This document shows positions 1,027 to 21,628 of a stretch of 64,000 bases of DNA, piece by piece (the stretch's first letter is position 1; every line of letters starts with the position of its first letter). Source of the stretch: Psilocybe cubensis (Eukaryota); assembly GCA_017499595.2 (NCBI GenBank), contig CM039003.1:1-64000 (forward strand), in the 5' to 3' direction. The translations under genes and the position numbers were made by a program. The notes below the pieces were generated by a model. It was not told the DNA's origin. It saw only the letters and a program-made list of their open reading frames with translations, and ran no database searches.

Positions 1027-1736
1027 CTTCTTTCTATTTCAAACTCACAGTTTAAACTAGTCGCTCGCACCTCGCTTCGCTCGGTGCTCGCTCCCCCCCT
1101 AAACCCTAAACCCTAAACCCTAAACCCTAACCCTAAACCTAAACCTAAACCCTAAACCCTAAACCCTAAACCCTAACCTAACCCCAACCCTAAGCTAACT
1201 AAGTCTAACCTTAGTAGGAAGTAAGGTAGGCGTGTGAACTTCCGAACGGCATGTGATTGTGAAGGGCCGGATCTAATTTAGTACATGGGAAAAGTTACTT
1301 AGTACTTCGGGAAAAGTTCCTTAGTACCGTGGAAACATTTTTGATGGACCGGATCATGAACTGTCCAATTAAGATTCACAACAATCAATCATTCTATTGT
1401 TTGATTGTTAGGTAAGGACCCAGGTAAGCTATTTATACTCTAGACATGTGAATATTCCCATGTCGCGGTTACTCGGAGCCACGTAACCAGAGTAATCTAT
1501 ATCCATGTGATTCACATCACAGTCAATAACCCACGATGTCAAAGAACAAAAGTGTTGGATCCACTTTTGACAGGTTACCATGTGCCACATCGACCCGTGA
1601 CACTCTGTTCATCAGAGACCTGTCTAACTTGACAATAAACATTGACAGATTTGTGATAGTCGGTAAGATACATGACAGCTGCGCAGCATCACTTCACGCG
1701 CTGTCATCGGATGTCTAGAACATTCCTTCTAAGAAT

Positions 1737-1800
1737 AGCCACTGAAGAGTCTATAAAGACGAAAGGGCTGGTTGTTGGGATCCCCCAACAGCCCTCTGGC
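1737..1800 (+). ncRNA. Type I hammerhead ribozyme (copy 2), cleavage after 1796
   Basis: Identical to copy 1. Confidence 0.93.
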
Positions 1801-1909
1801 CTTCTTTCTATTTCAAACTCACAGTTTAAACTAGTCGCTCGCACCTCGCTTCGCTCGGTGCTCGCTCCCCCCCTAAACCCAACGACTTTGCTATCACCCA
1901 TCAGTTACC

Positions 1910-4900
1910 ATGTCATCCCAATACTCTGCTGCATTCTCTCGTGCCATGTCCCCTACCCTGGACGCACTCACCCAGGCCGTCGTCAACAACACTGTCTTCG
2001 GCGTCAACGATGAAGCAGGCCGCCATAACGCTCTTATCGACGAGCTGGCCACTGTGGTCATCAAAAAAATAGCTGAGTGCCGCTCCGTTGACCAAGTCAT
2101 AGACTGCGTCTTTTTTGACTATCGTGCTGCCCTCAGGGAGTTTCTCCTCAACCTCGCATCGTGGTGCGACAAGAGGGAAACAGTCAAGGCTAGCCTCGAG
2201 CGCCTTGAATCTGCCGTTAGCGCAGGCAACACGCCCAATCGCCTTAAGGTGAAGGCACCCGAGTTCCAACTTACGAAGGAATTCGCGGATGCCGGGTCAG
2301 CGGAGGCTCTTCGAGTCTCCACTACGTTCTCTTCCGCTCGTGATGCCTTCCAAAAGGCAATTAACGACGGCGCCGTTCAGGCGAAAAAGGACGAGCTGGC
2401 TTTTTGGGATGATAAATGCGCGCTCAACTCTTGCTACGAAGCTGCTGCCCTCATCGTTAAGGCAACTTACGATGATCGCAAATCCAGCTACAAGCTCCCT
2501 GTTTTCTCTACAGACAACAAGGGAGTTCGACGTATAGCAGAGTGGGTAGTGTCTCCGCAAAAGAAAGCCGAATGCAGTGCGCTGCAAACTATACTGCCGG
2601 CGATCTTTTCTCATATCAAACAGATTGTCAACATGCGCCACCGCGCCTTGGCAATTAAGATTGAGAAAAAGCGGACGACTGCGGCAACAGCCGATGTCGA
2701 GATGGCCGATGCGACCAAACCAGGTCCATCGATTCAATCCCTTATTGATAAGGGCTTGAATGCACGTCTCAAAAAGCTCAACCTTGGATCTGTGGGCAAG
2801 AAGGCAAGTTTTCGTAACCCTTCACCCATAATTCTGGACACTAATTATTACTCTAATTACCCAGACTTTGTCTGGCCAGAATTCGTCCAAGGCTCCTCAA
2901 CCTCAGGCCAGGAAAGCTGGCCCTTCGAAACCCAAGTCGTCGTCGACGCCTTCGCAGAGGAAGCCTCAAACCAAGGCTTCCAACAAGGTCGACAACAAGA
3001 AGAAAGGGAAGGGGAGAGCTCCCGTCAAGAACAACGATCCAAAGGGAAAGGGAAAGGCAAGAGCCTAGACGCGCGGTCTACTGTAGCATCATTTACGTCG
3101 GTGAGACCCGCCTTCCCCAACTCTATTCCTGACGATATACTCACCATGACTAAAACAGACGCAGTTTCTTTTGTACACCTCAATACCCCGATTTCATTCT
3201 TATTGGCTGGCCAGTATAGATCTAGTGTACACTGTAGTCCTGGTGTTTCGGTCCCTGTTGATGTAGCAAATGATTTATCTCTTGGACTCAATTATATGTT
3301 TTTTACACTGCCTTCTAAAAATCTGATCATGCAAGCATGGAATGATTTTCAACGAAGAATAAGATGGCGTATCTATTTTTTGTTTAAAGAAGGCATGAAT
3401 AAACCTTTCGATCCAGACTATGGAGTAAGCTCTAAAAAGAAAGAGAAACCTCCAATGTTACCCGCAATTTATGGAACTTGGCCTTTCAATGGGACGTCGG
3501 TACGTTATTAAAACGATCGCAAGTATCCCGGAAGAAGCCCTTAAAGAGATGCGAAAGCACGCGTTCTCTCCTAAAAGGGACAAGATCCAAAAGTTTCTTT
3601 TCGATAACAACTATGTTATTACGATGACAGATAAGAATCTTGGCCTCGCGGTGTCTGAACGCGACTGGATATTAAGGAATGAGCTCAATCTTCTTGAAGA
3701 TGAACGCAACTACGAAGAGTTAGAATTCGAAGTTGCGCAAGAAGTTATGAAGAGCAAAATGATTCAGATGCAAACTCTCGCACGTACCGTCGAAGATGAA
3801 CATCTGTTTCTATTTGAACTTGGGTTGTCTCGATTCTTTCTATCGAATGTACCGGAAGACGGATCATCGTTCAAGTATCCTCAATTTCATGGTATACCTA
3901 AAATCCACAAGAAACCTACTGGATTTAGGCCCATAATTCCGTGTCACTCTGTAGTATTTAATCCTGCAGCCAAGTTTGTATCAAAAGAGCTTAAGCCGAT
4001 TATTAAATCGACTCCTTCAATCATTCACGGAACGAAGGATCTCTTTACGAGATTAAGCCAATTGCGTATAGACCCCAAACGACAATGGTATTTTGTCACC
4101 GGGGATGTAGTTGCTTTCTATCCCAATATTCCGTTGGACTTGTGCATCGAAATCGTTTGTAATATGTACGAGGAATGGTTACTCAACGCTTCGGAAGAGA
4201 ACACTGCATTAGCCCATATTAATCCAAATTCGTTAGAGAATAACTTGGTTAAATTGGGCATCTTTAAACGTGCTATCGAGATTGGCAATACGCAATTGAT
4301 AACACAACATGGGTCTAGATATTTTAGACAAAAAAATGGCCTCGCAATGGGCGTCGCGGATTCTCCGGACCTTGCTAACCTCTTTGGAGCCCATTTTGAA
4401 ATAAAGTCAAAAATCTTAGACCACCCAAACGTGGCCTTCTATGGAAGGTACATCGACGATTGTTTCGCAATTGTTTACGCCGAGTCCGAAGCACTTGCAC
4501 TTAATCTTATTAAAGAAACAATAAAGTTCGATGGTTGTGTTATCGAATGGGCTGTCTCCTCGTCGGGATGTCAATTTCTCGATGCTTTCATATTCAAGGA
4601 GTCTGGAAAACTTCATTGGAAGCCATTTGTCAAGACAGGAAACAACCGAGAACGAGTTCCATGGGTATCACATCATCCTTTGGACGTCAAACGTGGCGTC
4701 TACATTGGAGAGTTATCCAGGTTAGCCGTGCTATGTAGTACCAAGGAAATCTACATCGGAGCAATTAGAGACCTTAACGCTCTCTATTTGATGCGCGGTT
4801 ATCCCGAAAACCTAGTCATGTCTTGGTGTAAGAAGAATATACAAGAACGTTGGGAAAAGCGATTCGCTTTACGAGTCGCAGAGCACGACGAATCCATTCT

Positions 4901-5444
4901 TGTACTTAAAACCAGATTTGATCAGGTATGGAATTGGTTTTCAGCTGCTGAACTTGGAAAGACTGTTACCGAGTACTGGTCGGCATGGTATGAACATGCC
5001 GAGAAAGGTTTGTATAGTGCAGACTCGTCCAGACCCCTTATCAAACCAGATCCAAATTACGTTCACGACCTCGATGATGTTCGCCCGGAGCTGTTCACAC
5101 AGATCCTCGTGGACGGAGAAACTGAGTTCGTACCGGATTTGAGGAAGATAGGACTACTCGGAAGTCGTTGGATAGTATCGCGAAAACGCAATACTAATCT
5201 TTTCGACCTTGCAAATGTGTGGAAGAAAACAGTCTTTCGTAAACTGGATGAAAACATCGCTGAAAAAGGTGGTGTTGTTCCCGAAACTCAAAACGTTAAT
5301 GAAACTTATCATTCTGCTTTAGTTGAAGCTGCTGAACAGATAAGTATCGAAAGTGATAACGAGATAATACTTCATAGACGTTCAATCTCACAAGAGAGGG
5401 AACATCCAGAATTCGGCAGAATATCCAAATCTTACAACCGATGA
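1910..5444 (+). pseudogene. ORF1-RT polyprotein of element A, split by a +1 frameshift near 3461-3463 (ORFs 1910-3511 and 3471-5444)
   Basis: TTACCCGCAA here versus TTACCGCAA in copies B and C; otherwise colinear with the 1176-aa ORF; could be a homopolymer assembly error. Confidence 0.8.
2804..2864 (+). other. Putative 61-nt GC-AG spliceosomal intron inside the element ORF (also 9928-9988 and 15057-15117)
   Basis: AAG|GCAAGT donor, CTAAT branch sites, CCCAG acceptor; removal joins ORF1 in frame to the Lys-rich ORF ending at 3068. Confidence 0.75.
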
Positions 5445-6160
5445 AAAGAATACTAGCGCGTAAGGCGTAAAGCATTAGAAAAAAACCCTAACCGTAAGTA
5501 TTCCTTGCTACAAAGTAACAAACATCTACTTACAAGCAACACATTGGATTAAATAGCTAAACCTAAACCTAAACCCTAAACCCTAAACCCTAAACCCTAA
5601 CCTAACCCCAACCCTAAGCTAACTAAGTCTAACCTTAGTAGGAAGTAAGGTAGGCGTGTGAACTTCCGAACGGCATGTGATTGTGAAGGGCCGGATCTAA
5701 TTTAGTACATGGGAAAAGTTACTTAGTACTTCGGGAAAAGTTCCTTAGTACCGTGGAAACATTTTTGATGGACCGGATCATGAACTGTCCAATTAAGATT
5801 CACAACAATCAATCATTCTATTGTTTGATTGTTAGGTAAGGACCCAGGTAAGCTATTTATACTCTAGACATGTGAATATTCCCATGTCGCGGTTACTCGG
5901 AGCCACGTAACCAGAGTAATCTATATCCATGTGATTCACATCACAGTCAATAACCCACGATGTCAAAGAACAAAAGTGTTGGATCCACTTTTGACAGGTT
6001 ACCATGTGCCACATCGACCCGTGACACTCTGTTCATCAGAGACCTGTCTAACTTGACAATAAACATTGACAGATTTGTGATAGTCGGTAAGATACATGAC
6101 AGCTGCGCAGCATCACTTCACGCGCTGTCATCGGATGTCTAGAACATTCCTTCTAAGAAT

Positions 6161-6224
6161 AGCCACTGAAGAGTCTATAAAGACGAAAGGGCTGGTTGTT
6201 GGGATCCCCCAACAGCCCTCTGGC
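6161..6224 (+). ncRNA. Type I hammerhead ribozyme (copy 3)
   Basis: Identical to copy 1. Confidence 0.93.
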
Positions 6225-6362
6225 CTTCTTTCTATTTCAAACTCACAGTTTAAACTAGTCGCTCGCACCTCGCTTCGCTCGGTGCTCGCTCCCCCCCTAA
6301 ACCCTAAACCCTAAACCCTAAAACCCTAAACCCTAACCCCTAAACCCTAAACCCTAAACCCT

Positions 6363-7401
6363 AACATCGCTGAAAAAGGTGGTGTTGTTCCCGAAACTCA
6401 AAACGTTAATGAAACTTATCATTCTGCTCTAGTTGAAGCTGCTGAACAGATAAGTATCGAAAGTGATAACGAGATAATACTTCATAGACGTTCAATCTCA
6501 CAAGAGAGGGAACATCCAGAATTCGGCAGAATATCCAAATCTTACAACCGATGAAAAGAATACTAGCGCGTAAGGCGTAAAGCATTAGAAAAAAACCCTA
6601 ACCGTAAGTATTCCTTGCTATAAAGTAACAAACATCTACTTACAAGCAACACTTTGGATTAAATAGCTAAACCTAAACCCTAAACCCTAAACCCTAAACC
6701 CTAACCTAACCCCAACCCTAAGCTAACTAAGTCTAACCTTAGTAGGAAGTAAGGTAGGCGTGTGAACTTCCGAACGGCATGTGATTGTGAAGGGCCGGAT
6801 CTAATTTAGTACATGGGAAAAGTTACTTAGTACTTCGGGAAAAGTTCCTTAGTACCGTGGAAACATTTTTGATGGACCGGATCATGAACTGTCCAATTAA
6901 GATTCACAACAATCAATCATTCTATTGTTTGATTGTTAGGTAAGGACCCAGGTAAGCTATTTATACTCTAGACATGTGAATATTCCCATGTCGCGGTTAC
7001 TCGGAGCCACGTAACCAGAGTAATCTATATCCATGTGATTCACATCACAGTCAATAACCCACGATGTCAAAGAACAAAAGTGTTGGATCCACTTTTGACA
7101 GGTTACCATGTGCCACATCGACCCGTGACACTCTGTTCATCAGAGACCTGTCTAACTTGACAATAAACATTGACAGATTTGTGATAGTCGGTAAGATACA
7201 TGACAGCTGCGCAGCATCACTTCACGCGCTGTCATCGGATGTCTAGAACATTCCTTCTAAGAATAGCCACTGAAGAGTCTATAAAGACGAAAGGGCTGGT
7301 TGTTGGGATCCCCCAACAGCCCTCTGGCCTTCTTTCTATTTCAAACTCACAGTTTAAACTAGTCGCTCGCACCTCGCTTCGCTCGGTGCTCGCTCCCCCC
7401 C
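6363..7401 (+). mobile_element. 5'-truncated Coprina-like copy (ORF 3' end plus terminal repeat)
   Basis: Begins mid-ORF (AACATCGCTGAAAAAGG) directly after telomeric tract 6298-6364. Confidence 0.92.
7265..7328 (+). ncRNA. Type I hammerhead ribozyme (copy 4)
   Basis: Identical to copy 1. Confidence 0.93.
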
Positions 7402-7521
7402 TAAACCCTAAACCCTAAACCCTAAACCCTAAACCCTAAACCCTAAACCCTAAACCCTAAACCCTAAACCCTAAACCCTAAACCCTAAACCCTAAACCCT
7501 AAACCCTAAACCCTAAACCCT
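7402..7521 (+). repeat. Internal telomeric tract; acts as the 5' exon of the group I intron
   Basis: About 17 TAAACCC units. Similar internal tracts at 1100-1176, 6298-6364, 18542-18626, 21393-21441 and 21629-21681. Confidence 0.95.
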
Positions 7522-8287
7522 AAAACCGTTACGGAGGTCATACAAACTCGTTTTAGTCTAGCTGCGGGGATATCCAGCTATGATGACTTTGTAATTCGAG
7601 GGCGCGCAGTTCTTCAATGGGTATGGACATCAGGTGAGAGTACACTGGGGGTTGTCAGGACCAGCTCTGCTGGATACGCTCCTGGCAAGTCGGTTGCAGC
7701 CGGCGACACTACCGAATTGCTGGGACGTCCTAAAGCTTGTGGGTACCGCCGACCGCTGGAAACAGCCTAGGCACCGGTGGCGACCGGGTATGGTAACAAT
7801 CCCCAAGATTCAGCGAAAGCTGGAATGGATAATCAGCAGCGAATCCGTAACGGTCACGCCGACGGAAGCGTTCAACGACTAGGTGGTAGTGGGGTCTTCG
7901 GATCTTAAGATATAGTCTTGGGAGTGGGGAAACCCACATCTGGTATCTAAACCGCGCCTCGCTGCTTACGAGGACGGCCCGAAGTCCAGAACCGCTTAAA
8001 ACGCGGGTGACCCGGCCTCCCCTTAGTAAAGGGAGTTAACACAAGGATGGACAAATAGTTCGTCGCCGGAAATGAACCTGTGGCTGTAATGGCTGATGTG
8101 GCGCCCCTTGGTAAAGGGCTTAAAGGGTATTAGCCTGCCATGTCCAATGGCATGAGAGTGTCCCTTGGTAAAGGACTTAATAGGCAATAGCCTGCTCTTT
8201 TGTCATGAGCGGTATGTAGTGATCGTTTGCCTGTACGGTAGCGCCCATTGCTTGCACTGGTCCACGCCCGTAAAAAATCACGAGCCG
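7522..8287 (+). ncRNA. Group I intron (subgroup IC1-like ribozyme), ORF-less, inserted in a telomeric repeat
   Basis: P3 CACTACCG 7707-14 / TGGTAGTG 7884-91; P4 TGCTGG 7718-23 / TCAGCA 7833-38; P5abc with A-rich bulge and GAAA tetraloop; R GTTCAACGACTA; S TAAGATATAGTC; P7 A(C)GACTA/TAGTCT; P8 UUCG hairpin; P9 GTGGG-GAAA-CCCAC; preceded by U7521 and ends in G8287. Confidence 0.93.
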
Positions 8288-8862
8288 AAACCCTAAACCC
8301 TAACCTAACCCCAACCCTAAGCTAACTAAGTCTAACCTTAGTAGGAAGTAAGGTAGGCGTGTGAACTTCCGAACGGCATGTGATTGTGAAGGGCCGGATC
8401 TAATTTAGTACATGGGAAAAGTTACTTAGTACTTCGGGAAAAGTTCCTTAGTACCGTGGAAACATTTTTGATGGACCGGATCATGAACTGTCCAATTAAG
8501 ATTCACAACAATCAATCATTCTATTGTTTGATTGTTAGGTAAGGACCCAGGTAAGTTATTTATACTCTAGACATGTGAATATTCCCATGTCGCGGTTACT
8601 CGGAGCCACGTAACCAGAGTAATCTATATCCATGTGATTCACATCACAGTCAATAACCCACGATGTCAAAGAACAAAAGTGTTGGATCCACTTTTGACAG
8701 GTTACCATGTGCCACATCGACCCGTGACACTCTGTTCATCAGAGACCTGTCTAACTTGACAATAAACATTGACAGATTTGTGATAGTCGGTAAGATACAT
8801 GACAGCTGCGCAGCATCACTTCACGCGCTGTCATCGGATGTCTAGAACATTCCTTCTAAGAA

Positions 8863-8929
8863 TAGCCACTGAAGAGTCTATAAAGACGAAAGGGCTGGTT
8901 GTTGGGATCCCCCAACAGCCCTCTGGCTA
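8863..8929 (+). ncRNA. Type I hammerhead ribozyme (copy 5), stem I extended to TAGCCA/TGGCTA
   Basis: Same core; variant lengthens stem I. Confidence 0.93.
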
Positions 8930-9033
8930 CTTTCCATTTAACTCCCAGTTTAAACTAGTCGCTCGCACCTCGCTTCGCTCGGTGCTCGCTCCCCCCCTAA
9001 ACCCAACGACTTTGCTATTATCCATCAGCCACT

Positions 9034-12000
9034 ATGTCATCTCAATACTCTGCTGCTTTCTCTCGTGCCATGTCCCCCACCCTGGACGCACTCACCCAGG
9101 CCGTCGTCAACAACACCGTTTTCGGCGTCAACGATGAAGCAGGCCGCCATAACGCTCTGATCGACGAGCTGGCCACTGTGGTCATCAAAAAAATAGCTGA
9201 GTGCCGCTCCGTTGACCAAGTCATAGACTGCGTCTTTTTTGACTATCGTGCTGCCCTTAGGGAGTTTCTCCTCAACCTCGCATCGTGGTGCGATAAGAGG
9301 GAAACAGTCAAGGCTAGCCTCGAGCGCCTTGAATCTGCCGTTAGCGCAGGCAACACGCCCAATCGCCTTAAGGTGAAGGCACCCGAGTTCCAACTTACGA
9401 AGGAATTCGCGAATGCCGGGTCAGCGGAGGCTCTTCGAGTCTCCACTACGTTCTCTACCGCTCGTGACGCCTTCCAAAAGGCAATTAACGACGGCGCCAT
9501 TCAGGCGAAAAAGGACGAGCTGACTTTTTGGGATGATAAATGCGCACTCAACTCTTGCTACGAAGCTGCTGCCCTCATCGTTAAGGCAACTTACGATGAT
9601 CGCAAATCCAGCTACAAGCTCCCTGTTTTCTCTACAGATAACAAGGGAGTTCGACGTATAGCAGAGTGGGTAGTGTCTCCGCAAAAGAAAGCCGAATGCA
9701 GTGCGCTGCAAACCATACTGCCGGCGATCTTTTCTCACATCAAACAAATTGTCAACATGCGCCACCGCGCTTTGGCAATTAAGATTGAGAAAAAGCGGAC
9801 GACTGCGGCAACAGCCGATGTCGAGATGGCCGACGCGACCAAACCAGGTCCGTCGATTCAATCCCTTATTGATAAGGGCTTGAATGCACGTCTCAAGAAG
9901 CTCAACCTTGGATCTGTGGGCAAGAAGGCAAGTTTTCGTAACCCTTCACCCATAATTCTGGATACTAATTACTACTCTAATTACCCAGACTTTGTCTGGC
10001 CAGAATTCATCCAAGGCTCCTCAACCTCAGGCCAAGAAAGCTGGCCCTTCGAAACCCAAGTCGTCGTCGACGCCTTCGCAACGCAAGCCTCAAACCAAGG
10101 CTTCCAACAAGGTCGACAACAAGAAGAAAGGGAAGGGGAGAGCTCCCGTCAAGAACGATCCAAAGGGAAAGGGAAAGGCAAGAGCCTAGATGCGCGGTCT
10201 AATGTAGTACCTTTTACGTCGGTGAGACCCGCCTTCCCCAACTCTATTCCTGACGATATACTCACCATGACTAAAACAGACGCAGTTTCTTTCGTACACT
10301 TACATACTCCAATATCATTCTTGTTGGCTGGCCAGTATCGTAGTAGTGTACATTGTAGTCCTGGTGTTTCTGTCCCTGTTGATGTAGCAAACGATCTCTC
10401 TCTCGGACTTAATTATATGTTTTTCACTCTGCCTTCTAAAAGTCTGATCATGCAAGCATGGAATGATTTCCAACGAAGAATAAGATGGCGTATCTATTTT
10501 TTGTTTAAGGAAGGCATGAATAAACCTTTTGATCCAGATTATGGAGTAAGCTCAAAAAAGAAAGAGAAACCTCCTGTATTACCGCAATATATGGAACTTG
10601 GCCTTTCGATGGGACGTCGGTACGTGCAACGCACGATCGCAAGTATCCCGGAAGAAGCCCTTACGGAGATGCGAAAGCACGCGTTCTCTCCTAAAAGGGA
10701 CAAGATCCGTAAGTTTCTTATCGATAACAACTATGTTATTACGATGACAGATAAGAATCTTGGCCTCGCGGTGTCTGAACGCGACTGGATATTAAGGAAT
10801 GAGCTCAATCTTCTTGAAGATGAACGTAATTACGAAGAGTTAGAATTCGAAGTTGCGCAAGAAGTTATGAAGAGCAAAATGATTCAGATGCAAACGCTCG
10901 CACGTACTGTCGAAGATGAACATCTGTTTCTATTTGAACTTGGGTTGTCTCGATTCTTTCTATCGAATGTACCGGAAGACGGATCATCGTTCAAGTATCC
11001 TCAATTTCATGGTATACCTAAAATCCACAAGAAACCTACTGGATTTAGGCCCATAATTCCGTGTCACTCTGTAGTATTTAATCCTGCAGCCAAGTTTGTA
11101 TCAAAAGAGCTTAAGCCGATTATTAAATCGACTCCTTCAATCATACACGGAACGAAGGATCTCTTTACGAGATTAAGCCAATTGCGTATAGACTCCAAAA
11201 GACAATGGTATTTTGTCACTGGAGATGTAGTTGCTTTCTATCCCAATATTCCGTTGGACTTGTGCATCGAAATCGTTTGTAGTATGTACGAGGAATGGTT
11301 ACTCAACGCTTCGGAAGAAAACACTGCATTAGCCCATATTAATCCAAATTCGTTAGAGAATAACTTGGTTAAATTGGGCATCTTTAAACGTGCTATCGAG
11401 ATTGGCAATACGCAATTGATAACACAACATGGGTCTAGATATTTTAGACAAAAAAATGGCCTCGCAATGGGCGTCGCGGATTCTCCGGACCTTGCTAACC
11501 TCTTTGGAGCCCATTTTGAAATAAAGTCAAAAATCTTAGACCACCCAAACGTGGCCTTCTATGGAAGGTACATCGACGATTGTTTCGCAATTGTTTACGC
11601 CGAGTCCGAAGCACTTGCACTTAATCTTATTAAAGAAACAATAAAGTTCGATGGTTGTGTTATCGAATGGGCTGTTTCCTCGTCGGGATGTCAATTTCTC
11701 GATGCTTTCATATTCAAGGAGTCTGGAAAACTTCATTGGAAGCCTTTTGTCAAGACAGGAAACAACCGAGAACGAGTTCCATGGGTATCACATCATCCTT
11801 TGGACGTCAAACGTGGCGTCTACATTGGAGAGTTATCCAGGTTAGCCGTGCTATGTAGTACCAAGGAAATCTACATCGGAGCAATTAGAGACCTTAACGC
11901 TCTCTATTTGATGCGCGGTTATCCCGAAAACCTAGTCATATCTTGGTGTAAGAAGAATATACAAGAACGTTGGGAAAAGCGATTCGCTTTACGAGTCGCA

Positions 12001-12564
12001 GAGCACGACGAATCCATTCTTGTACTTAAAACCAGATTTGATCAGGTATGGAATTGGTTTTCAGCTGCTGAACTTGGAAAAACTGTTACCGAGTACTGGT
12101 CGGCATGGTATGAACATGCCGAGAAAGGTTTGTATAGTGCAGACTCGTCCAGACCCCTTATCAAACCAGATCCAAATTACGTTCACGACCTCGATGATGT
12201 TCGCCCGGAGCTGTTCACACAGATCCTCGTGGACGGAGAAACTGAGTTCGTACCGGATTTGAGGAAGATAGGACTACTCGGAAGTCGTTGGATAGTATCG
12301 CGAAAACGCAATACTAATCTTTTCGACCTTGCAAATGTGTGGAAGAAAACAGTCTTTCGTAAACTGGATGAAGACATCGCTGAAAAAGGTGGTGTTGTTC
12401 CCGAAACTCAAAACGTTAATGAAACTTATCATTCTGCTTTAGTTGAAGCTGCTGAGCAGATAAGTATCGAAAGTGATAACGAGATAATACTTCATAGACG
12501 TTCAATCTCACAAGAGAGGGAACATCCAGAATTTGGCAGAATATCCAAATCTTACAACCGATGA
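9034..12564 (+). CDS. Penelope-like (Coprina) ORF1-reverse transcriptase polyprotein, 1176 aa, no endonuclease
   Basis: RT motifs PKIHK..FRPII, GDVVAFYPNIP, QKNGLAMG..SP.LANLF, YGRYIDD and FLD; helical, probably coiled-coil N-terminus; C-terminus lacks GIY-YIG. Confidence 0.95.
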   Translation: MSSQYSAAFSRAMSPTLDALTQAVVNNTVFGVNDEAGRHNALIDELATVVIKKIAECRSVDQVIDCVFFDYRAALREFLLNLASWCDKRETVKASLERLESAVSAGNTPNRLKVKAPEFQLTKEFANAGSAEALRVSTTFSTARDAFQKAINDGAIQAKKDELTFWDDKCALNSCYEAAALIVKATYDDRKSSYKLPVFSTDNKGVRRIAEWVVSPQKKAECSALQTILPAIFSHIKQIVNMRHRALAIKIEKKRTTAATADVEMADATKPGPSIQSLIDKGLNARLKKLNLGSVGKKASFRNPSPIILDTNYYSNYPDFVWPEFIQGSSTSGQESWPFETQVVVDAFATQASNQGFQQGRQQEEREGESSRQERSKGKGKGKSLDARSNVVPFTSVRPAFPNSIPDDILTMTKTDAVSFVHLHTPISFLLAGQYRSSVHCSPGVSVPVDVANDLSLGLNYMFFTLPSKSLIMQAWNDFQRRIRWRIYFLFKEGMNKPFDPDYGVSSKKKEKPPVLPQYMELGLSMGRRYVQRTIASIPEEALTEMRKHAFSPKRDKIRKFLIDNNYVITMTDKNLGLAVSERDWILRNELNLLEDERNYEELEFEVAQEVMKSKMIQMQTLARTVEDEHLFLFELGLSRFFLSNVPEDGSSFKYPQFHGIPKIHKKPTGFRPIIPCHSVVFNPAAKFVSKELKPIIKSTPSIIHGTKDLFTRLSQLRIDSKRQWYFVTGDVVAFYPNIPLDLCIEIVCSMYEEWLLNASEENTALAHINPNSLENNLVKLGIFKRAIEIGNTQLITQHGSRYFRQKNGLAMGVADSPDLANLFGAHFEIKSKILDHPNVAFYGRYIDDCFAIVYAESEALALNLIKETIKFDGCVIEWAVSSSGCQFLDAFIFKESGKLHWKPFVKTGNNRERVPWVSHHPLDVKRGVYIGELSRLAVLCSTKEIYIGAIRDLNALYLMRGYPENLVISWCKKNIQERWEKRFALRVAEHDESILVLKTRFDQVWNWFSAAELGKTVTEYWSAWYEHAEKGLYSADSSRPLIKPDPNYVHDLDDVRPELFTQILVDGETEFVPDLRKIGLLGSRWIVSRKRNTNLFDLANVWKKTVFRKLDEDIAEKGGVVPETQNVNETYHSALVEAAEQISIESDNEIILHRRSISQEREHPEFGRISKSYNR

Positions 12565-13279
12565 AAAGAATACTAGCGCTTAAGGCGTAAAGCATTAGAA
12601 AAAAACCCTAACCGTAAGTATTCCTTGCTATAAAGTAACAAACATCTACTTACAAGCAACACATTGGATTGAATAGCTAAACCTAAACCTAAACCCTAAA
12701 CCCTAAACCCTAAACCCTAACCTAACCCCAACCCTAAGCTAACTAAGTCTAACCTTAGTAGGAAGTAAGGTAGGCGTGTGAACTTCCGAACGGCATGTGA
12801 TTGTGAAGGGCCGGATCTAATTTAGTACATGGGAAAAGTTACTTAGTACTTCGGGAAAAGTTCCTTAGTACCGTGGAAACATTTTTGATGGACCGGATCA
12901 TGAACTGTCCAATTAAGATTCACAACAATCAATCATTCTATTGTTTGATTGTTAGGTAAGGACCCAGGTAAGTTATTTATACTCTAGACATGTGAATATT
13001 CCCATGTCGCGGTTACTCGGAGCCACGTAACCAGAGTAATCTATATCCATGTGATTCACATCACAGTCAATAACCCACGATGTCAAAGAACAAAAGTGTT
13101 GGATCCACTTTTGACAGGTTACCATGTGCCACATCGACCCGTGACACTCTGTTCATCAGAGACCTGTCTAACTTGACAATAAACATTGACAGATTTGTGA
13201 TAGTCGGTAAGATACATGACAGCTGCGCAGCATCACTTCACGCGCTGTCATCGGATGTCTAGAACATTCCTTCTAAGAA

Positions 13280-13346
13280 TAGCCACTGAAGAGTCTATAA
13301 AGACGAAAGGGCTGGTTGTTGGGATCCCCCAACAGCCCTCTGGCTA
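13280..13346 (+). ncRNA. Type I hammerhead ribozyme (copy 6)
   Basis: As copy 5. Confidence 0.93.
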
Positions 13347-13991
13347 CTTTCCATTTAACTCCCAGTTTAAACTAGTCGCTCGCACCTCGCTTCGCTCGGT
13401 GCTCGCTCCCCCCCTAAACCCTAAACCCTAACCTAACCCCAACCCTAAGCTAACTAAGTCTAACCTTAGTAGGAAGTAAGGTAGGCGTGTGAACTTCCGA
13501 ACGGCATGTGATTGTGAAGGGCCGGATCTAATTTAGTACATGGGAAAAGTTACTTAGTACTTCGGGAAAAGTTCCTTAGTACCGTGGAAACATTTTTGAT
13601 GGACCGGATCATGAACTGTCCAATTAAGATTCACAACAATCAATCATTCTATTGTTTGATTGTTAGGTAAGGACCCAGGTAAGCTATTTATACTCTAGAC
13701 ATGTGAATATTCCCATGTCGCGGTTACTCGGAGCCACGTAACCAGAGTAATCTATATCCATGTGATTCACATCACAGTCAATAACCCACGATGTCAAAGA
13801 ACAAAAGTGTTGGATCCACTTTTGACAGGTTACCATGTGCCACATCGACCCGTGGCACTCTGTTCATCAGAGACCTGTCTAACTTGACAATAAACATTGA
13901 CAGATTTGTGATAGTCGGTAAGATACATGACAGCTGCGCAGCATCACTTCACGCGCTGTCATCGGATGTCTAGAACATTCCTTCTACGAAT

Positions 13992-14056
13992 AGCCACTGA
14001 AGAGTCTATAAAGACGAAAGGGCTGGTTGTTGGGATCCCCCAACAGCCCTCTGGCT
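13992..14056 (+). ncRNA. Type I hammerhead ribozyme (copy 7)
   Basis: Same core; stem I AGCCA/TGGCT. Confidence 0.93.
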
Positions 14057-14162
14057 TCTTTCCATTTTAACTCCCAGTTTAAACTAGTCGCTCGCACCTC
14101 GCTTCGCTCGGTGCTCGCTCCCCCCCTAAACCCAACGACTTTGCTATCACCCATCAGCCACT

Positions 14163-17100
14163 ATGTCATCCCAATATTCTGCTGCTTTCTCTCGTGCCAT
14201 GTCCCCCTCCCTGGACGCACTCACCCAGGCCGTCGTCAACAACACCGTCTTCGGCGTCAACGATGAAGCAGGCCGCCAAAACGCTCTCATCGACGAGCTG
14301 GCCACTGTGGTCATCAAGAAAATAGCTGAGTGCCGCTCCGTTGATCAAATAATAGACTGCGTCTTTTTTGACTATCGCGCTGCCCTTAGGGAGTTTCTCC
14401 TCAACCTCGCATCGTGGTGCGACAAGAGGGAAACAGTCAGGGCTAGCCTTGAGCGCCTTGAACTTGCCGTTAGCGCAGGCAGCACCCCCAATCGCCTTAA
14501 GGTGAAGGCTCCCGAGTTCCAACTCACGAAGGAATTCGCGGATGCCGGGTCAGCGGAGGCTCTTCGAGTCTCTACTACGTTCTCCACCGCTCGTGACGTC
14601 TTCCAAAAGGCGATTAACGACGGCGCCATTCAGGCGAAAAAGGACGAACTGGCCTTTTGGGAGGATAAATGCGCACTCGCTTCTTGCTATGAAGCTGCTG
14701 CGGTCATCGTTAAGACAACTTACGAAGACCGCAAGTCCAGCTATAAGCTCCCCGTTTTCTCTACAGACAACAAGGGAGTTCGTCGCATAGCAGAGTGGGT
14801 AACGTCGCCGCAAAAGAAAGCCGAGTGCAGTGCGCTGCAAACTATACTGCCGGCTATCTTTTCTCATATCAAACAAATTGTCAAATTGCGCCACCGCGCT
14901 TTGGCAATTAAGATTGAGAAAAAGCGGTCGACCGCGGCTACAGCCGATGTCGAGATGGCCGACGCGACCAAACCAGGTCCGTCGATTCAATCCCTTATTG
15001 ATAAGGGCTTGAATGCACGTCTTAAGAAGCTCAACCTTGGATATGTGGGCAAGAAGGCAGGTTTTCGTAACCCTTCACCCATAACTTTGGATACTAATTA
15101 TTATTCTAATTACCCAGACTTCGTCTGGCCAGAGTTCGTCCAAGGCTCCTCAACCTCAGGCCAAGAAAACTGGCCCTTCGAAACCCAAGTCGTCGTCGAC
15201 GCCTTCGCAACGCAAGCCTCAAACCAAGGCTTCCAACAAGGTCGACAACAAGAAGAAAGGGAAGGGGAGAGCTCCCGTCAAGAACAACAATCCAAAGGGA
15301 AAGGGAAAGGCAAGAGCCTAAACGCGCGGTCTAATGTAGTACCTTTTACGTCGGTAAGACCCGCTTTCCCCAACTCTATTCCTGACGATATACTCACCAT
15401 GACTAAAACAGACGCAGTTTCATTTGTACACCTCAATACCCCAATTTCTTTCTTATTGGCTGGCCAGTATAGATCTAGTGTACATTGTAGTCCTGGTGTT
15501 GTAGTTCCGGTTGATGTAGCAAACGACTTATCTCTCGGTTTAAATTATATGTTTTTCACACTGCCTTCTCAAAGTCTGATCATGCAAGCATGGAATGATT
15601 TTCAACGAAGAATAAGATGGCGTATCTATTTTTTGTTTAAAGAAGGCATGAATAAACCTTTTGATCCAGATTATGGAGTAAGTTCTAAGAAAAAAGAAAA
15701 ACCTCCTGTATTACCGCAATATATGGAACTTGGCCTTTCGATGGGACGTCGGTACGTGCAACGCACGATCGCAAGTATCCCGGAAGAAGCCCTCACGGAG
15801 ATGCGAAAGCACGCGTTCTCTCCTAAAAGGGACAAGATCCGTAAGTTTCTTATCGATAACAACTATGTTATTACGATGACAGATAAGAATCTTGGCCTCG
15901 CGGTGTCTGAACGCGACTGGATAATAAGGAATGAGCTCAATCTTCTTGAAGATGAACGCAACTACGAAGAGTTAGAATTCGAAGTTGCTCAAGAAGTTAT
16001 GAAGAGCAAAATGATTCAGATGCAAACGCTCGCACGTACTGTCGAAGATGAACATCTGTTTCTATTTGAACTTGGGTTGTCTCGATTTTTTCTATCAAAT
16101 GTACCGGAAGACGGATCATCGTTCAAGTATCCTCAATTTCATGGTATACCTAAAATCCACAAAAAACCTACTGGATTTAGGCCCATAATTCCGTGTCACT
16201 CTGTAGTATTTAATCCTGCAGCCAAGTTTGTATCAAAAGAGCTTAAGCCGATTATTAAATCGACTCCTTCAATCATTCACGGAACGAAGGATCTCTTTAC
16301 GAGATTAAGCCAATTGCGTATAGACCCCAAACGACAATGGTATTTTGTCACCGGGGATGTAGTTGCTTTCTATCCCAATATTCCGTTGGACTTGTGCATC
16401 GAAATCGTTTGTAATATGTACGAGGAATGGTTACTCAACGCTTCGGAAGAAAACACTGCATTAGCCCATATTAATCCAAATTCGTTAGAGAATAACTTGG
16501 TTAAATTGGGCATCTTTAAACGTGCTATCGAGATTGGCAATACGCAATTGATAACACAACATGGGTCTAGATATTTTAGACAAAAAAATGGCCTCGCAAT
16601 GGGCGTCGCGGATTCTCCGGACCTTGCTAACCTCTTTGGAGCCCATTTTGAAATAAAGTCAAAAATCTTAGACCACCCAAACGTGGCCTTCTATGGAAGG
16701 TACATCGACGATTGTTTCGCAATTGTTTACGCCGAGTCCGAAGCACTTGCACTTAATCTTATTAAAGAAACAATAAAGTTCGATGGTTGTGTTATCGAAT
16801 GGGCTGTTTCCTCGTCGGGATGTCAATTTCTCGATGCTTTCATATTCAAGGAGTCTGGAAAACTTCATTGGAAGCCATTTGTCAAGACAGGAAACAACCG
16901 AGAACGAGTTCCATGGGTATCACATCATCCTTTGGACGTCAAACGTGGCGTCTACATTGGAGAGTTATCCAGGTTAGCCGTACTATGTAGTACCAAGGAA
17001 ATCTACATCGGAGCAATTAGAGACCTTAACGCTCTCTATTTGATGCGCGGTTATCCCGAAAACCTAGTCATGTCTTGGTGTAAGAAGAATATACAAGAAC

Positions 17101-17696
17101 GTTGGGAAAAGCGATTCGCTTTACGAGTCGCAGAGCACGACGAATCCATTCTTGTACTTAAAACCAGATTTGATCAGGTATGGAATTGGTTTTCAGCTGC
17201 TGAACTTGGAAAGACTGTTACCGAGTACTGGTCGGCATGGTATGAACATGCCGAGAAAGGTCTGTATAGTGCAGACTCGTCCAGACCCCTTATCAAACCA
17301 GATCCAAATTACGTTCACGACCTCGATGATGTTCGCCCGGAGCTGTTCACACAGATCCTCGTGGACGGAGAAACTGAGTTCGTACCGGATTTGAGGAAGA
17401 TAGGACTACTCGGAAGTCGTTGGATAGTATCGCGAAAGCGCAATACTAATCTTTTCGACCTTGCAAATGTGTGGAAGAAAACAGTCTTTCGTAAACTGGA
17501 TGAAAACATCGCTGAAAAAGGTGGTGTTGTTCCCGAAACTCAAAACGTTAATGAAACTTATCATTCTGCTCTAGTTGAAGCTGCTGAACAGATAAGTATC
17601 GAAAGTGATAACGAGATAATACTTCATAGACGTTCAACCTCACAAGAGAGGGAACATCCAGAATTCGGCAGAATATCCAAATCTTACAACCGATGA
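14163..17696 (+). CDS. Penelope-like (Coprina) ORF1-reverse transcriptase polyprotein, 1177 aa
   Basis: Same RT motifs (YIDD) as copy B; uninterrupted ORF. Confidence 0.95.
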   Translation: MSSQYSAAFSRAMSPSLDALTQAVVNNTVFGVNDEAGRQNALIDELATVVIKKIAECRSVDQIIDCVFFDYRAALREFLLNLASWCDKRETVRASLERLELAVSAGSTPNRLKVKAPEFQLTKEFADAGSAEALRVSTTFSTARDVFQKAINDGAIQAKKDELAFWEDKCALASCYEAAAVIVKTTYEDRKSSYKLPVFSTDNKGVRRIAEWVTSPQKKAECSALQTILPAIFSHIKQIVKLRHRALAIKIEKKRSTAATADVEMADATKPGPSIQSLIDKGLNARLKKLNLGYVGKKAGFRNPSPITLDTNYYSNYPDFVWPEFVQGSSTSGQENWPFETQVVVDAFATQASNQGFQQGRQQEEREGESSRQEQQSKGKGKGKSLNARSNVVPFTSVRPAFPNSIPDDILTMTKTDAVSFVHLNTPISFLLAGQYRSSVHCSPGVVVPVDVANDLSLGLNYMFFTLPSQSLIMQAWNDFQRRIRWRIYFLFKEGMNKPFDPDYGVSSKKKEKPPVLPQYMELGLSMGRRYVQRTIASIPEEALTEMRKHAFSPKRDKIRKFLIDNNYVITMTDKNLGLAVSERDWIIRNELNLLEDERNYEELEFEVAQEVMKSKMIQMQTLARTVEDEHLFLFELGLSRFFLSNVPEDGSSFKYPQFHGIPKIHKKPTGFRPIIPCHSVVFNPAAKFVSKELKPIIKSTPSIIHGTKDLFTRLSQLRIDPKRQWYFVTGDVVAFYPNIPLDLCIEIVCNMYEEWLLNASEENTALAHINPNSLENNLVKLGIFKRAIEIGNTQLITQHGSRYFRQKNGLAMGVADSPDLANLFGAHFEIKSKILDHPNVAFYGRYIDDCFAIVYAESEALALNLIKETIKFDGCVIEWAVSSSGCQFLDAFIFKESGKLHWKPFVKTGNNRERVPWVSHHPLDVKRGVYIGELSRLAVLCSTKEIYIGAIRDLNALYLMRGYPENLVMSWCKKNIQERWEKRFALRVAEHDESILVLKTRFDQVWNWFSAAELGKTVTEYWSAWYEHAEKGLYSADSSRPLIKPDPNYVHDLDDVRPELFTQILVDGETEFVPDLRKIGLLGSRWIVSRKRNTNLFDLANVWKKTVFRKLDENIAEKGGVVPETQNVNETYHSALVEAAEQISIESDNEIILHRRSTSQEREHPEFGRISKSYNR

Positions 17697-18406
17697 AAAG
17701 AATACTAGCGCGTAAGGCGTAAAGCATTAGAAAAAAACCCTAACCGTAAGTATTCCTTGCTATAAAGTAACAAACATCTACTTACAAGCAACACTTTGGA
17801 TTAAATAGCTAAACCTAAACCCTAAACCCTAAACCCTAAACCCTAACCTAACCCCAACCCTAAGCTAACTAAGTCTAACCTTAGTAGGAAGTAAGGTAGG
17901 CGTGTGAACTTCCGAACGGCATGTGATTGTGAAGGGCCGGATCTAATTTAGTACATGGGAAAAGTTACTTAGTACTTCGGGAAAAGTTCCTTAGTACCGT
18001 GGAAACATTTTTGATGGACCGGATCATGAACTGTCCAATTAAGATTCACAACAATCAATCATTCTATTGTTTGATTGTTAGGTAAGGACCCAGGTAAGCT
18101 ATTTATACTCTAGACATGTGAATATTCCCATGTCGCGGTTACTCGGAGCCACGTAACCAGAGTAATCTATATCCATGTGATTCACATCACAGTCAATAAC
18201 CCACGATGTCAAAGAACAAAAGTGTTGGATCCACTTTTGACAGGTTACCATGTGCCACATCGACCCGTGGCACTCTGTTCATCAGAGACCTGTCTAACTT
18301 GACAATAAACATTGACAGATTTGTGATAGTCGGTAAGATACATGACAGCTGCGCAGCATCACTTCACGCGCTGTCATCGGATGTCTAGAACATTCCTTCT
18401 ACGAAT

Positions 18407-18471
18407 AGCCACTGAAGAGTCTATAAAGACGAAAGGGCTGGTTGTTGGGATCCCCCAACAGCCCTCTGGCT
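18407..18471 (+). ncRNA. Type I hammerhead ribozyme (copy 8)
   Basis: As copy 7. Confidence 0.93.
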
Positions 18472-18626
18472 TCTTTCCATTTTAACTCCCAGTTTAAACT
18501 AGTCGCTCGCACCTCGCTTCGCTCGGTGCTCGCTCCCCCCCTAAACCCTAAACCCTAAACCCTAAACCCTAAACCCTAAACCCTAAACCCTAAACCCTAA
18601 ACCCTAAACCCTAAACCCTAAACCCT

Positions 18627-21392
18627 AGAAGCCCTCAAGGAGATGCGAAAGCACGCGTTCTCTCCTAAAAGGGACAAGATCCAAAAGTTTCTTATCGATA
18701 ACAACTATGTTATTACGATGACAGATAAGAATCTTGGCCTCGCGGTGTCTGAACGCGACTGGATATTAAGGAACGAGCTCAATCTTCTTGAAGATGAACG
18801 CAACTACGAAGAGTTAGAATTCGAAGTTGCTCAAGAAGTTATGAAGAGCAAAATGATTCAGATGCAAACTCTTGCACGTACCGTCGAAGATGAACATCTG
18901 TTTCTATTTGAACTTGGGTTGTCTCGATTTTTTCTATCGAATGTACCGGAAGATGGATCATCGTTCAAGTATCCTCAATTTCATGGTATACCTAAAATCC
19001 ACAAGAAACCTACTGGATTTAGGCCCATAATTCCGTGTCACTCTGTAGTATTTAATCCTGCAGCCAAGTTTGTATCAAAAGAGCTTAAGCCGATTATTAA
19101 ATCGACTCCTTCAATCATTCACGGAACGAAGGATCTCTTTACGAGATTAAGCCAATTGCGTATAGACTCCAAAAGACAATGGTATTTTGTCACTGGAGAT
19201 GTAGTTGCTTTCTATCCCAATATTCCGTTGGACTTGTGCATCGAAATCGTTTGTAGTATGTACGAGGAATGGTTACTCAACACTTCGGAAGAAAACACTA
19301 CATTAGCCCACATTAAGCCAAATTCGTTAGAGAATAACTTGGTTAAATTGGGCATCTTTAAACGTGCTATCGAGATTGGCAATACGCAATTGATAACACA
19401 ACATGGGTCTAGATATTTTAGACAAAAAAATGGCCTCGCAATGGGCGTCGCGGATTCTCCGGACCTTGCTAACCTCTTTGGAGCCCATTTTGAAATAAAG
19501 TCAAAAATCTTAGACCACCCAAACGTGGCCTTCTATGGAAGGTACATCGACGATTGTTTCGCAATTGTTTACGCCGAGTCCAAAGCACTTGCACTTAATC
19601 TTATTAAAGAAACAATAAAGTTCGATGGTTGTGTTATCGAATGGGCTGTTTCCTCGTCGGGATGTCAATTTCTCGATGCTTTCATATTCAAGGAGTCTGG
19701 AAAACTTCATTGGAAGCCATTTGTCAAGACAGGAAACAACCGAGAACGAGTTCCATGGGTATCACATCATCCTTTGGACGTCAAACGTGGCGTCTACATT
19801 GGAGAGTTATCCAGGCTAGCCGTGCTATGTAGTACCAAGGAAATCTACATCGGAGCAATTAGAGACCTTAACGCTCTCTATTTGATGCGCGGTTATCCCG
19901 AAAACCTAGTCATGTCTTGGTGTAAGAAGAATATACAAGAACGTTGGGAAAAGCGATTTGCTTTACGAGTCGCAGAGCACGACGAATCCATTCTTGTACT
20001 TAAAACCAGGTTTGATCAGGTATGGAATTGGTTTTCAGCTGCTGAACTTGGAAAAACTGTTACCGAGTACTGGTCGGCATGGTATGAACATGCCGAGAAA
20101 GGTCTGTATAGTGCAGACTCGTCCAGACCCCTTATCAAACCAGATCCAAATTACGTTCACGACCTCGATGATGTTCGCCCGGAGCTGTTCACACAGATCC
20201 TCGTGGACGGAGAAACTGAGTTCGTACCGGATTTGAGGAAGATAGGACTACTCGGAAGTCGTTGGATAGTATCGCGAAAGCGCAATACTAATCTTTTCGA
20301 CCTTGCAAATGTGTGGAAGAAAACAGTTTTTCGTAAACTGGATGAAGACATTGCCGAAAAAGGTGGTGTTGTTCCCGAAACTCAAAACGTTAATGAAACT
20401 TATCATTCTGCTCTAGTTGAAGCTGCTGAACAGATAAGTATCGAAAGCGATAACGAGATAATACTTCATAGACGTTCAATCTCACAAGAGAGGGAACATC
20501 CAGAATTCGGCAGAATATCCAAATCTTACAACCGATGAAAAGAATACTAGCGCTTAAGGCGTAAAGCATTAGAAAAAAACCCTAACCGTAAGTATTCATT
20601 GCTATAAAGTAACAAACATCTACTTACAAGCAACACATTGGATTGAATAGCTAAACCTAAACCTAAACCCTAAACCCTAAACCCTAAGCCCTAACCTAAC
20701 CCCAACCCTAAGCTAACTAAGTCTAACCTTAGTAGGAAATAAGGTAGGCGTGTGAACTTCCGAACGGCATGTGATTGTGAAGGGCCGGATCTAATTTAGT
20801 ACATGGGAAAAGTTACTTAGTACTTCGGGAAAAGTTCCTTAGTACCGTGGAAACATTTTTGATGGACCGGATCATGAATTGTCCAATTAAGATTCACAAC
20901 AATCAATCATTCTATTTTTTGATTGTTAGGTAAGGACCCAGGTAAGCTATTTATACTCTAGACATGTGAATATTCCCATGTCGCGGTTACTCGGAGCCAC
21001 GTAACCAGAGTAATCTATATCCATGTGATTCACATCACAGTCAATAACCCACGATGTCAAAGAACAAAAGTGTTGGATCCACTTTTGACAGGTTACCATG
21101 TGCCACATTGACCCGTGACACTCTGTTCATCAGAGACCTGTCTAACTTGACAATAAACATTGACAGATTTGTGATAGTCGGTAAGATACATGACAGCTGC
21201 GCAGCATCACTTCACGCGCTGTCATCGGATGTTCCAGAACATTCCTTCTAAGAATAGCCACTGAAGAGTCTATAAAGACGAAAGGGCTGGCCGTTTGTAC
21301 CCCCAAACAGCCCTCTGGCCTTCTTTCTATTTCAAACTCACAGTTTAAACTAGTCGCTCGCACCTCGCTTCGCTCGGTGCTCGCTCCCCCCC
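18627..21392 (+). mobile_element. 5'-truncated Coprina-like element D (retains the RT domain, ORF 18643-20538)
   Basis: Starts mid-ORF directly after telomeric tract 18542-18626. Confidence 0.92.
21256..21319 (+). ncRNA. Type I hammerhead ribozyme (copy 9), variant stem III loop
   Basis: Core and stems unchanged; only the distal part of stem III differs (GCCGTTTGTACCCCCAAA). Confidence 0.92.
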
Positions 21393-21440
21393 TAAACCCT
21401 AAACCCTAAACCCTAAACCCTAAACCCTAAACCCTAAACC

Positions 21441-21628
21441 CAGCATCACTTCACGCGCTGTCATCGGATGTCTAGAACATTCCTTCTAAGAATAGCCACT
21501 GAAGAGTCTATAAAGACGAAAGGGCTGGTTGTTGGGATCCCCCAACAGCCCTCTGGCCTTCTTTCCATTTAACTCACAGTTTAAACAAGTCGCTCGCACC
21601 TCGCTTCGCTTGGTGCTCGCTCCCCCCC
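21441..21628 (+). mobile_element. Innermost short 3' fragment of the terminal repeat (hammerhead plus terminal hairpin only)
   Basis: Last ~190 nt of the repeat, lying between two telomeric tracts. Confidence 0.9.
21494..21557 (+). ncRNA. Type I hammerhead ribozyme (copy 10)
   Basis: Same as copy 1. Confidence 0.92.

Follow-up and report, generated by a model that had tools for sequence, protein, structure and literature searches.

Three paralogous three-way-junction modules follow helix P9 of a group I ribozyme near the start of the 64-kb stretch of DNA analysed here (64,000 nucleotides, hereafter the window), and these repeats are a real, selected RNA module. Comparison of the modules indicates that their stems have changed by pair-preserving substitution since a duplication that produced two of them, while a CUURGUAAA top and a UUAA strand have stayed fixed. 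On balance, we lean towards the view that the three modules, placed after P9 of a canonical ribozyme, are maintained as a multi-copy docking platform.

The Intron Unit and Its Group I Core

The intron unit occupies 760 nt of the forward strand (7528..8287), with limits that are shared with copies elsewhere, and it ends in a candidate terminal guanosine, G8287. Its ribozyme core lies on the same strand at 7643..7939 and comprises P2 to P9, with an extended P5 domain and a GAAA loop on P9. The match to RF00028 at these positions covers the whole model (1-253 of 253) and scores 70.9 bits against a gathering score of 50 (E 5.6e-16), which establishes the intron identity from which the earlier note had started; the host of the hairpins is a canonical group I ribozyme. 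In the interval 7400-8400, a search of Rfam at E up to 1 returned RF00028 alone, so the modules match no RNA family there; rRNA families were found neither in this interval at the same threshold nor window-wide at the gathering score. The unit sits outside rDNA, with telomere repeats on one side and a Coprina pLTR on the other. When the first 24 kb were compared with the whole window by self-BLAST, no second copy of the unit appeared.

The 3' peripheral extension after P9 (7940..8287, forward strand) carries no ORF and contains all three modules. It had been claimed that a homing endonuclease gene is absent from this intron, and this holds, the longest stop-to-stop frame in 7525-8290 being at most 101 codons. 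When the extension is folded alone, its z score is -1.32. In the fold of the whole unit, the 3' tail (8240..8287, forward strand) is predicted to form a panhandle with 7601-7652. The duplex between 7601-7652 and 8241-8286 is long and imperfect, with a Duplexfold energy of -40.1 kcal/mol and a z score of -2.9 (5 of 1000 shuffles were as good), and as modelled it would bring G8287 beside about position 7600. To our knowledge, such a 5'/3' panhandle is not standard among group I features. The minimum free energy (MFE) structure of the whole unit also predicts a closed domain at 8083..8239 on the forward strand, which would hold M2, M3, and a hairpin at 8207-8228 within closing stems 8083-8088/8234-8239 and 8091-8093/8229-8231. 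Two candidate internal guides were picked out by eye, GGAGG at 7534-7538 and GGGGGU at 7647-7652.

The Telomeric Array Around the Unit

The window opens with (AAACCCT)n at 1-180, and the telomere unit is the 7-mer CCCTAAA. This 7-mer is found although the neighbouring genes look fungal (LysM and GH18 at 47-61 kb). After the opening tract begins a head-to-tail array of forward-strand elements of about 5.2 kb each, with full copies at 1133-6364, 8285-13448, and 13412-18607 and truncated copies at 181-1106, 6364-7408, and 18627-21441. At both of its ends, every element carries a repeat of 720-750 nt (the pLTR), and a CCCTAAA tract follows the element. Distal to the intron unit lies a perfect (CCCTAAA)18 tract (7399..7524, forward strand; period 7, 18 copies, 100% matches in TRF), and on the other side, at 8288..9004 on the forward strand, lies the 5' pLTR of the next full-length Coprina-like element, whose ORF spans 9034-12564. 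At the inner edge of the array, a 236-bp tandem duplication (21202-21678; 2 copies, 94% matches) consists of a pLTR end and telomere repeats.

Intact element copies contain a single ORF of 1176-1177 aa (9034-12564 and 14163-17696), and in element copy 1 (1910-5444) a frameshift near residue 518-520 divides this single ORF into two. The "ORF1" that had been taken for an element protein is therefore a frameshift product of copy 1, the intact copies having one 1176-aa ORF. The ORF matches RVT_1 with 26.7-27.3 bits, below the cut-off of 29.6, and a DKN motif is present in the alignment; beyond this weak match no Pfam domain was found, and a PDB sequence search with the ORF gave no match at E up to 1. 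The anatomy of the array matches that of EN-deficient Penelope-like elements (PLEs) of the Coprina type, as these are portrayed in passages of two publications (PMC8557442, PMC13159263). The terminal position, the telomere repeats between copies, and the pLTRs are all as expected of such an element.

Every pLTR also contains a sub-threshold hammerhead (RAGATH-1-HH, 29.1 bits, E 0.011, against a gathering score of 56.3) with the core sequences CUGAAGA and GAAA. In the 5' pLTR of the next element it spans 8844-8928 on the forward strand, with predicted cleavage at 8923|8924. The predicted cut falls after CAGCCCTC, as at 7324|7325 and 8923|8924, and this sequence occurs 10 times in the first 22 kb of the window. 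Near the pLTR start, at 8336-8470 and correspondingly in each pLTR, there are three direct repeats of about 22 nt that begin with TTAGTAC, and beside them a possible hairpin, ACCTTA...TAAGGT.

Architecture of the Junction Modules

The three hairpins reported earlier are present in the sequence at 8017-8035, 8103-8119, and 8160-8176. Their tops are near-invariant (CCTTAGTAAAGG in copy 1 and CCTTGGTAAAGG in copies 2 and 3), their lower stems (CTCCC/GGGAG, GCCC/GGGC, and GTCC/GGAC) differ by compensatory change, and each is followed by TTAA, all as had been described. The motif CTTRGTAAAGG has three matches on both strands of the 64-kb window, all of them here (at 8022, 8107, and 8164); shuffled sequences led to an expectation of 0.08, and three matches were reached in 0 of 100 shuffles. 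Within the 9-nt top CUURGUAAA, R is the sole variable position among the three copies. In a 4-bp frame, the stems of this hairpin (hairpin I) read U-A/C-G/C-G/C-G, G-C/C-G/C-G/C-G, and G-C/U-A/C-G/C-G, so that two of the four pairs are double compensatory, without a broken pair in any copy. Folded in isolation, the hairpins do not exceed shuffled sequences in stability (z -0.31, +0.20, and -0.65); the support for them is covariation, not stability.

Each hairpin is predicted to be one arm of a three-way junction composed of an outer stem, hairpin I, a UUAA strand, and a second hairpin (hairpin II). The same junction was obtained from the fold of the whole unit, from RNAalifold on M2 and M3, and from each module folded alone. 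Hairpin I is stacked directly on the 5' strand of the outer stem, and hairpin II directly abuts the 3' strand. The earlier note had continued copies 2 and 3 with two further hairpins, which fared differently. The first of these (GGGT-ATTA-GCCT or AGGC-AATA-GCCT) corresponds to the predicted second hairpin, with a probability of 0.57-1.0, and the other (GCCAT/ATGGC or GCTC/GAGC) is not upheld, its ensemble probability being 0.01 or less. In the models, the 5' strand of this third hairpin is more likely the closing 3' strand of an outer stem that begins upstream of hairpin I. Both pairings of this strand are formally possible, and the third-hairpin version also has two compensatory pairs.

All three modules lie on the forward strand. 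M1 (8012..8069) folds alone as a three-way junction with an outer stem at 8012-8016/8065-8069, hairpin I at 8017-8035, the joining strand UUAACACAAG, and hairpin II at 8046-8064; a further stem surrounds it at 8002-8008/8076-8082. Folded by itself it has a z score of -3.22, and none of 200 shuffles was as good. It shares the three-way topology of the other modules but has a hairpin II of its own, which is longer, as is its joining strand; it lies 26 nt upstream of M2. M2 (8095..8144), delimited by folding and RNAalifold, has an outer stem at 8095-8102/8137-8144, hairpin I at 8103-8119, the strand UUAAA, and hairpin II at 8125-8136. M3 (8152..8201), delimited in the same way, is a tandem duplicate of M2 with a 57-nt period; its outer stem lies at 8154-8159/8194-8199, with an extension at 8147-8152/8201-8206, and it has hairpin I at 8160-8176, the strand UUAAU, and hairpin II at 8182-8193. 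Whole modules range in z score from -1.25 to -3.22, and M2 and M3 are not unusually stable (to z about -1.5). TRF did not call the M2/M3 array as a tandem repeat. The pair has the layout of a direct-repeat array, lying head to tail in a peripheral extension without an ORF of more than 101 codons.

Covariation and Selection on the Fold

M2 and M3 align without gaps and are identical at 33 of 50 positions, from which it is apparent that a 57-nt unit was duplicated in tandem to give rise to them; M1 has in common with them the topology as well as the hairpin I and UUAA part. The pair counts given here refer to M2 and M3 only, as MAFFT misaligns M1 when all three modules are aligned. Between M2 and M3 there are 17 differences, 15 of them in stems, and 14 of these 15 keep the pairing, a pattern that indicates selection for an RNA fold whose unpaired bases are fixed. 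Differing columns make up 15 of the 32 paired positions and 2 of the 18 unpaired ones (Fisher p 0.013). In an explicit model of 16 pairs, 15 are standard in M2 as well as in M3 and one is broken; five pairs show double compensatory and four show one-sided changes. The observed result was reached in 0 of 20000 column shuffles, and slid partners gave only 4-5 of 16. RNAalifold arrived unprompted at the three-way junction, with 16 pairs, of which four changed on both sides, four on one side, and none was broken. These numbers are small, and they come from two to three paralogues within one molecule rather than from independent homologues.

A covariance model built from M2 and M3 (R1) was searched against 128 kb, that is, both strands of the window, and its best match outside the training sequences was M1 (8009-8072; 14.1 bits, E 0.21). 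Near-identical copies of the unit in three public sequencing runs (X8, X9, and X10, see below) contain too few changes for a test of covariation. X8 has seven substitutions in 7681-8287, none within 8089-8256. At M1, the change 8002 C>T leaves a G-U pair, and those at 8054 and 8055 fall in the loop of hairpin II. A metagenome scan with a two-module pattern returned 26 loci, none with a blastn match to the unit; these were rejected as homologues and read as chance matches, many of them in AT-rich DNA.

Copies in Other Genomes and the Origin of the Unit

Logan contigs from four public runs (X8, X9, X10, and X11) were compared with window positions 7525-8500. Contigs from X8, X9, and X10 are 99% alike, and their fit to the window starts exactly at 7528, preceded by a different left flank that is non-telomeric and absent from the window at up to three mismatches. 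The window copy begins at 7528 after telomere repeats and lacks this flank. The contigs of X8 and X10 fit precisely up to 8287, after which other sequence follows. In the window G8287 is followed by the pLTR start, whereas X8 and X10 have the last approximately 80 nt of a pLTR at this place. The Coprina sequence in X10 starts one base before the predicted hammerhead cut, and that in X8 starts about 7 nt further on. Read depth of the unit is 8-51 in three runs, compared with 538-2713 for the pLTR in X10. The X11 contig is an 85%-identical relative of 7591-8046 (63 differences from the window unit) with a depth of 2903; it then diverges and covers neither M2 nor M3. Two diverged 5' variants (7528-7710) with a common left flank were seen in X8 (0 versus 17 differences) and X10 (3 versus 13), which points to two or more paralogous copies in each genome. 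Runs labelled as RNA from this species contained almost none of the unit's words, and this is not evidence of absence.

The position G8287 is shared by the window, X8, and X10 with three different continuations, and judging from these junctions it fits a 3' end made by the ribozyme. A constant 3' end joined to differing Coprina partners suggests reverse-transcribed intron RNA, and together with a truncated, telomere-healed 5' end it is what copying of an RNA from its 3' end would leave behind. The unit is most simply explained as a reverse-transcribed copy of an intron RNA that ended in the ribozyme's own terminal G (8287). Such an RNA would arise after splicing or after hydrolysis at the 3' splice site, and passages of one review call hydrolysis that leaves the terminal G common in nuclear group I introns (PMC3679873). 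The Coprina reverse transcriptase would then add the intron RNA to a chromosome end, or would reach it by template switching. Synthesis of cDNA would stop near 7528, and telomerase would heal the truncated 5' end, giving the perfect telomere tract. Guide-directed reverse splicing into Coprina or telomere RNA was considered and rejected: neither of the observed 5' flanks has a U as its last base (7527), and the 3' junctions of X8 and X10 do not follow sites that pair with the candidate guides.

What the Modules May Do

Fixed unpaired bases on compensating stems have, in sequence terms, the look of a sequence-specific recognition site. Each module would be maintained as a unit that folds independently and exposes fixed single-stranded bases, and from this we infer the multi-copy docking platform. 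The earlier proposal of protein-binding sites survives in this general form, with the 9-nt top, the UUAA, and the hairpin II loop as the fixed unpaired bases on compensating stems; its specific form, mimicry of Coprina RNA that recruits ORF1 or reverse transcriptase, is not supported. The most likely docking partner, which we put forward tentatively, would be a protein able to bind the intron RNA or to act as its chaperone. Contact with another part of the intron's own RNA is a good deal less likely. A triple set of sites complementary to the loop was found nowhere else in the unit, which favours an external partner.

Neutral expansion of a direct repeat, in which a small recent duplication is tolerated away from the core and has no function of its own, is the strongest of the competing explanations, and we consider it unlikely. 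Direct-repeat arrays in P9, P1, and P2 are known and are discussed as possibly neutral in passages of two studies of nuclear introns (PMC8395846, PMC9223047), and the lack of unusual stability in the modules would suit such an origin. Neutral drift, however, would be expected to break pairs and to spare unpaired bases no more than stems; instead, stems took 15 of the 17 differences, with pairing kept in 14 of those, and M1 retains the top and the UUAA although all else in it has diverged.

Peripheral domains after P9 commonly brace group I cores, and it is conceivable, if rather improbable, that the modules are folding scaffolds whose fixed loops contact the core or each other and thereby stabilise the fold or position the 3' splice site. 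The predicted return of the 3' tail to 7601-7652 requires a compact extension and would agree with a scaffold. Three identical loops would, however, need three equivalent receptors, and the unit contains no repeated complementary site; pairing between loop I and loop II, examined by eye, is possible in M2 but is not kept in M3.

Lower still stands the idea, to which we attach little probability, that the hairpins imitate a site by which Coprina RNA is recognised and attract the element protein or reverse transcriptase, the intron being a non-autonomous passenger. The unit does lie within an array of Coprina elements, and YTTAGTA words occur in both. In different genomes, its exact 3' end also meets Coprina sequence at two or three different positions, which would mean that the unit encountered the reverse transcriptase more than once. 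The TTAGTA motif that the earlier note had pointed to in the Coprina repeat is indeed present (for example at 8338, 8405, 8426, and 8448), but its likeness to the hairpin top is at chance level. A blastn-short comparison of the unit with a full element gave only 8-10-mers with E of at least 3: CCTTAGTA is shared at E 46 and is one shared 8-mer among dozens of equally good chance 8-mers, and the best 10-mers are at E 3, so no likeness goes beyond chance. Among the matches that R1 lists at E up to 10 there is none to Coprina in the sense orientation; the antisense Coprina matches score 8.6-12.8 bits. In the pLTR, moreover, the YTTAGTA word lies within a predicted stem and not in an apical loop. 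The junctions could have arisen by a switch of template to the 3' end of any abundant RNA, and they fit recruitment and plain template switching equally well.

Hardly credible is a role as decoy 5' splice sites for the U1 snRNP, or as RNase III-type hairpins with RGUA-loop helices, with an influence on how the RNA is processed or retained in the nucleus. The words G|GUAAAG and A|GUAAAG do occur three times, which is a resemblance to the consensus only, but these RGUAAAG words are partly paired in the predicted fold.

Relation to Known Systems and Significance

The closest known counterpart of the modules is the set of direct-repeat arrays of myxomycete nuclear introns, which occur in extensions of P9, P1, and P2 and whose role is unknown according to passages of two reports (PMC8395846, PMC9223047). 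As portrayed there, those arrays are likewise ORF-less repeated motifs in or after P9 of an IC1-type intron, some of them hairpins, at the site where other introns carry homing endonuclease genes (PMC8395846, PMC9223047). The present array differs in having three copies only, three-way junctions, compensatory stems, and fixed loops, and it belongs to an intron copy outside rDNA in an organism that looks fungal (LysM, GH18). In Tetrahymena-type IC1 introns, the P9.1 and P9.2 domains are likewise structured helices after P9 that end shortly before the terminal G. Unlike these, the extension described here consists of about 350 nt of repeated junction modules, with no sign of the known loop-loop contacts.

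The junctions of the unit also have relatives. Template switching by the reverse transcriptase of a retroelement makes chimeric retrocopies, such as chimeras of small RNAs and LINEs. Such chimeras, and the terminal additions made by the EN-deficient Penelope-like elements Athena and Coprina (PMC8557442, PMC13159263), resemble the present case in that the exact 3' end of a foreign RNA joins the 5' part of an element, with variation or truncation at the 5' end and with telomere repeats separating successive additions. What sets the present case apart is the passenger, a whole group I ribozyme. Among the publications returned by literature searches that were not aimed at this exact case, none reported a telomeric group I intron or one joined to a PLE.

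Retrozymes, described in a preprint as hammerhead-bearing non-autonomous partners of Penelope-like elements (bioRxiv 10.64898/2026.07.22.740005), share with the intron unit a ribozyme-bearing non-coding RNA and an association with a PLE. They differ in ribozyme class, and in the unit no tandem or circular organisation was seen and depth is low. The group I ribozyme RNA might be a recurrent non-autonomous passenger of Coprina, a "group I retrozyme" with a self-made 3'-OH at G8287 and with the junction array as its capture handle, a speculation that we regard as doubtful. The handle would serve capture by the Coprina protein, or by a host protein bound to the telomere or nucleolus, before reverse transcription onto chromosome ends, and this extension of the idea is just as doubtful.

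The significance of the modules lies in the combination of a small array with a signature of selection, in which stems covary and loops are fixed, so that they constitute a defined and testable RNA motif. The telomeric retro-copied ribozyme is the more surprising item of the two. As described in three sources, nuclear group I introns interrupt functional rRNA genes, and all known ones reside in rDNA (PMC3679873, PMC8395846, PMC9223047); reverse transcription and genomic integration of intron RNA are stated in the first of these never to have been demonstrated (PMC3679873). A complete ribozyme with a constant 3' G and varied retroelement junctions looks like a natural product of this undemonstrated integration step. 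The "group I retrozyme", if true, would be natural evidence for the step of reverse transcription and integration that has long been assumed in the RNA-level mobility of introns.
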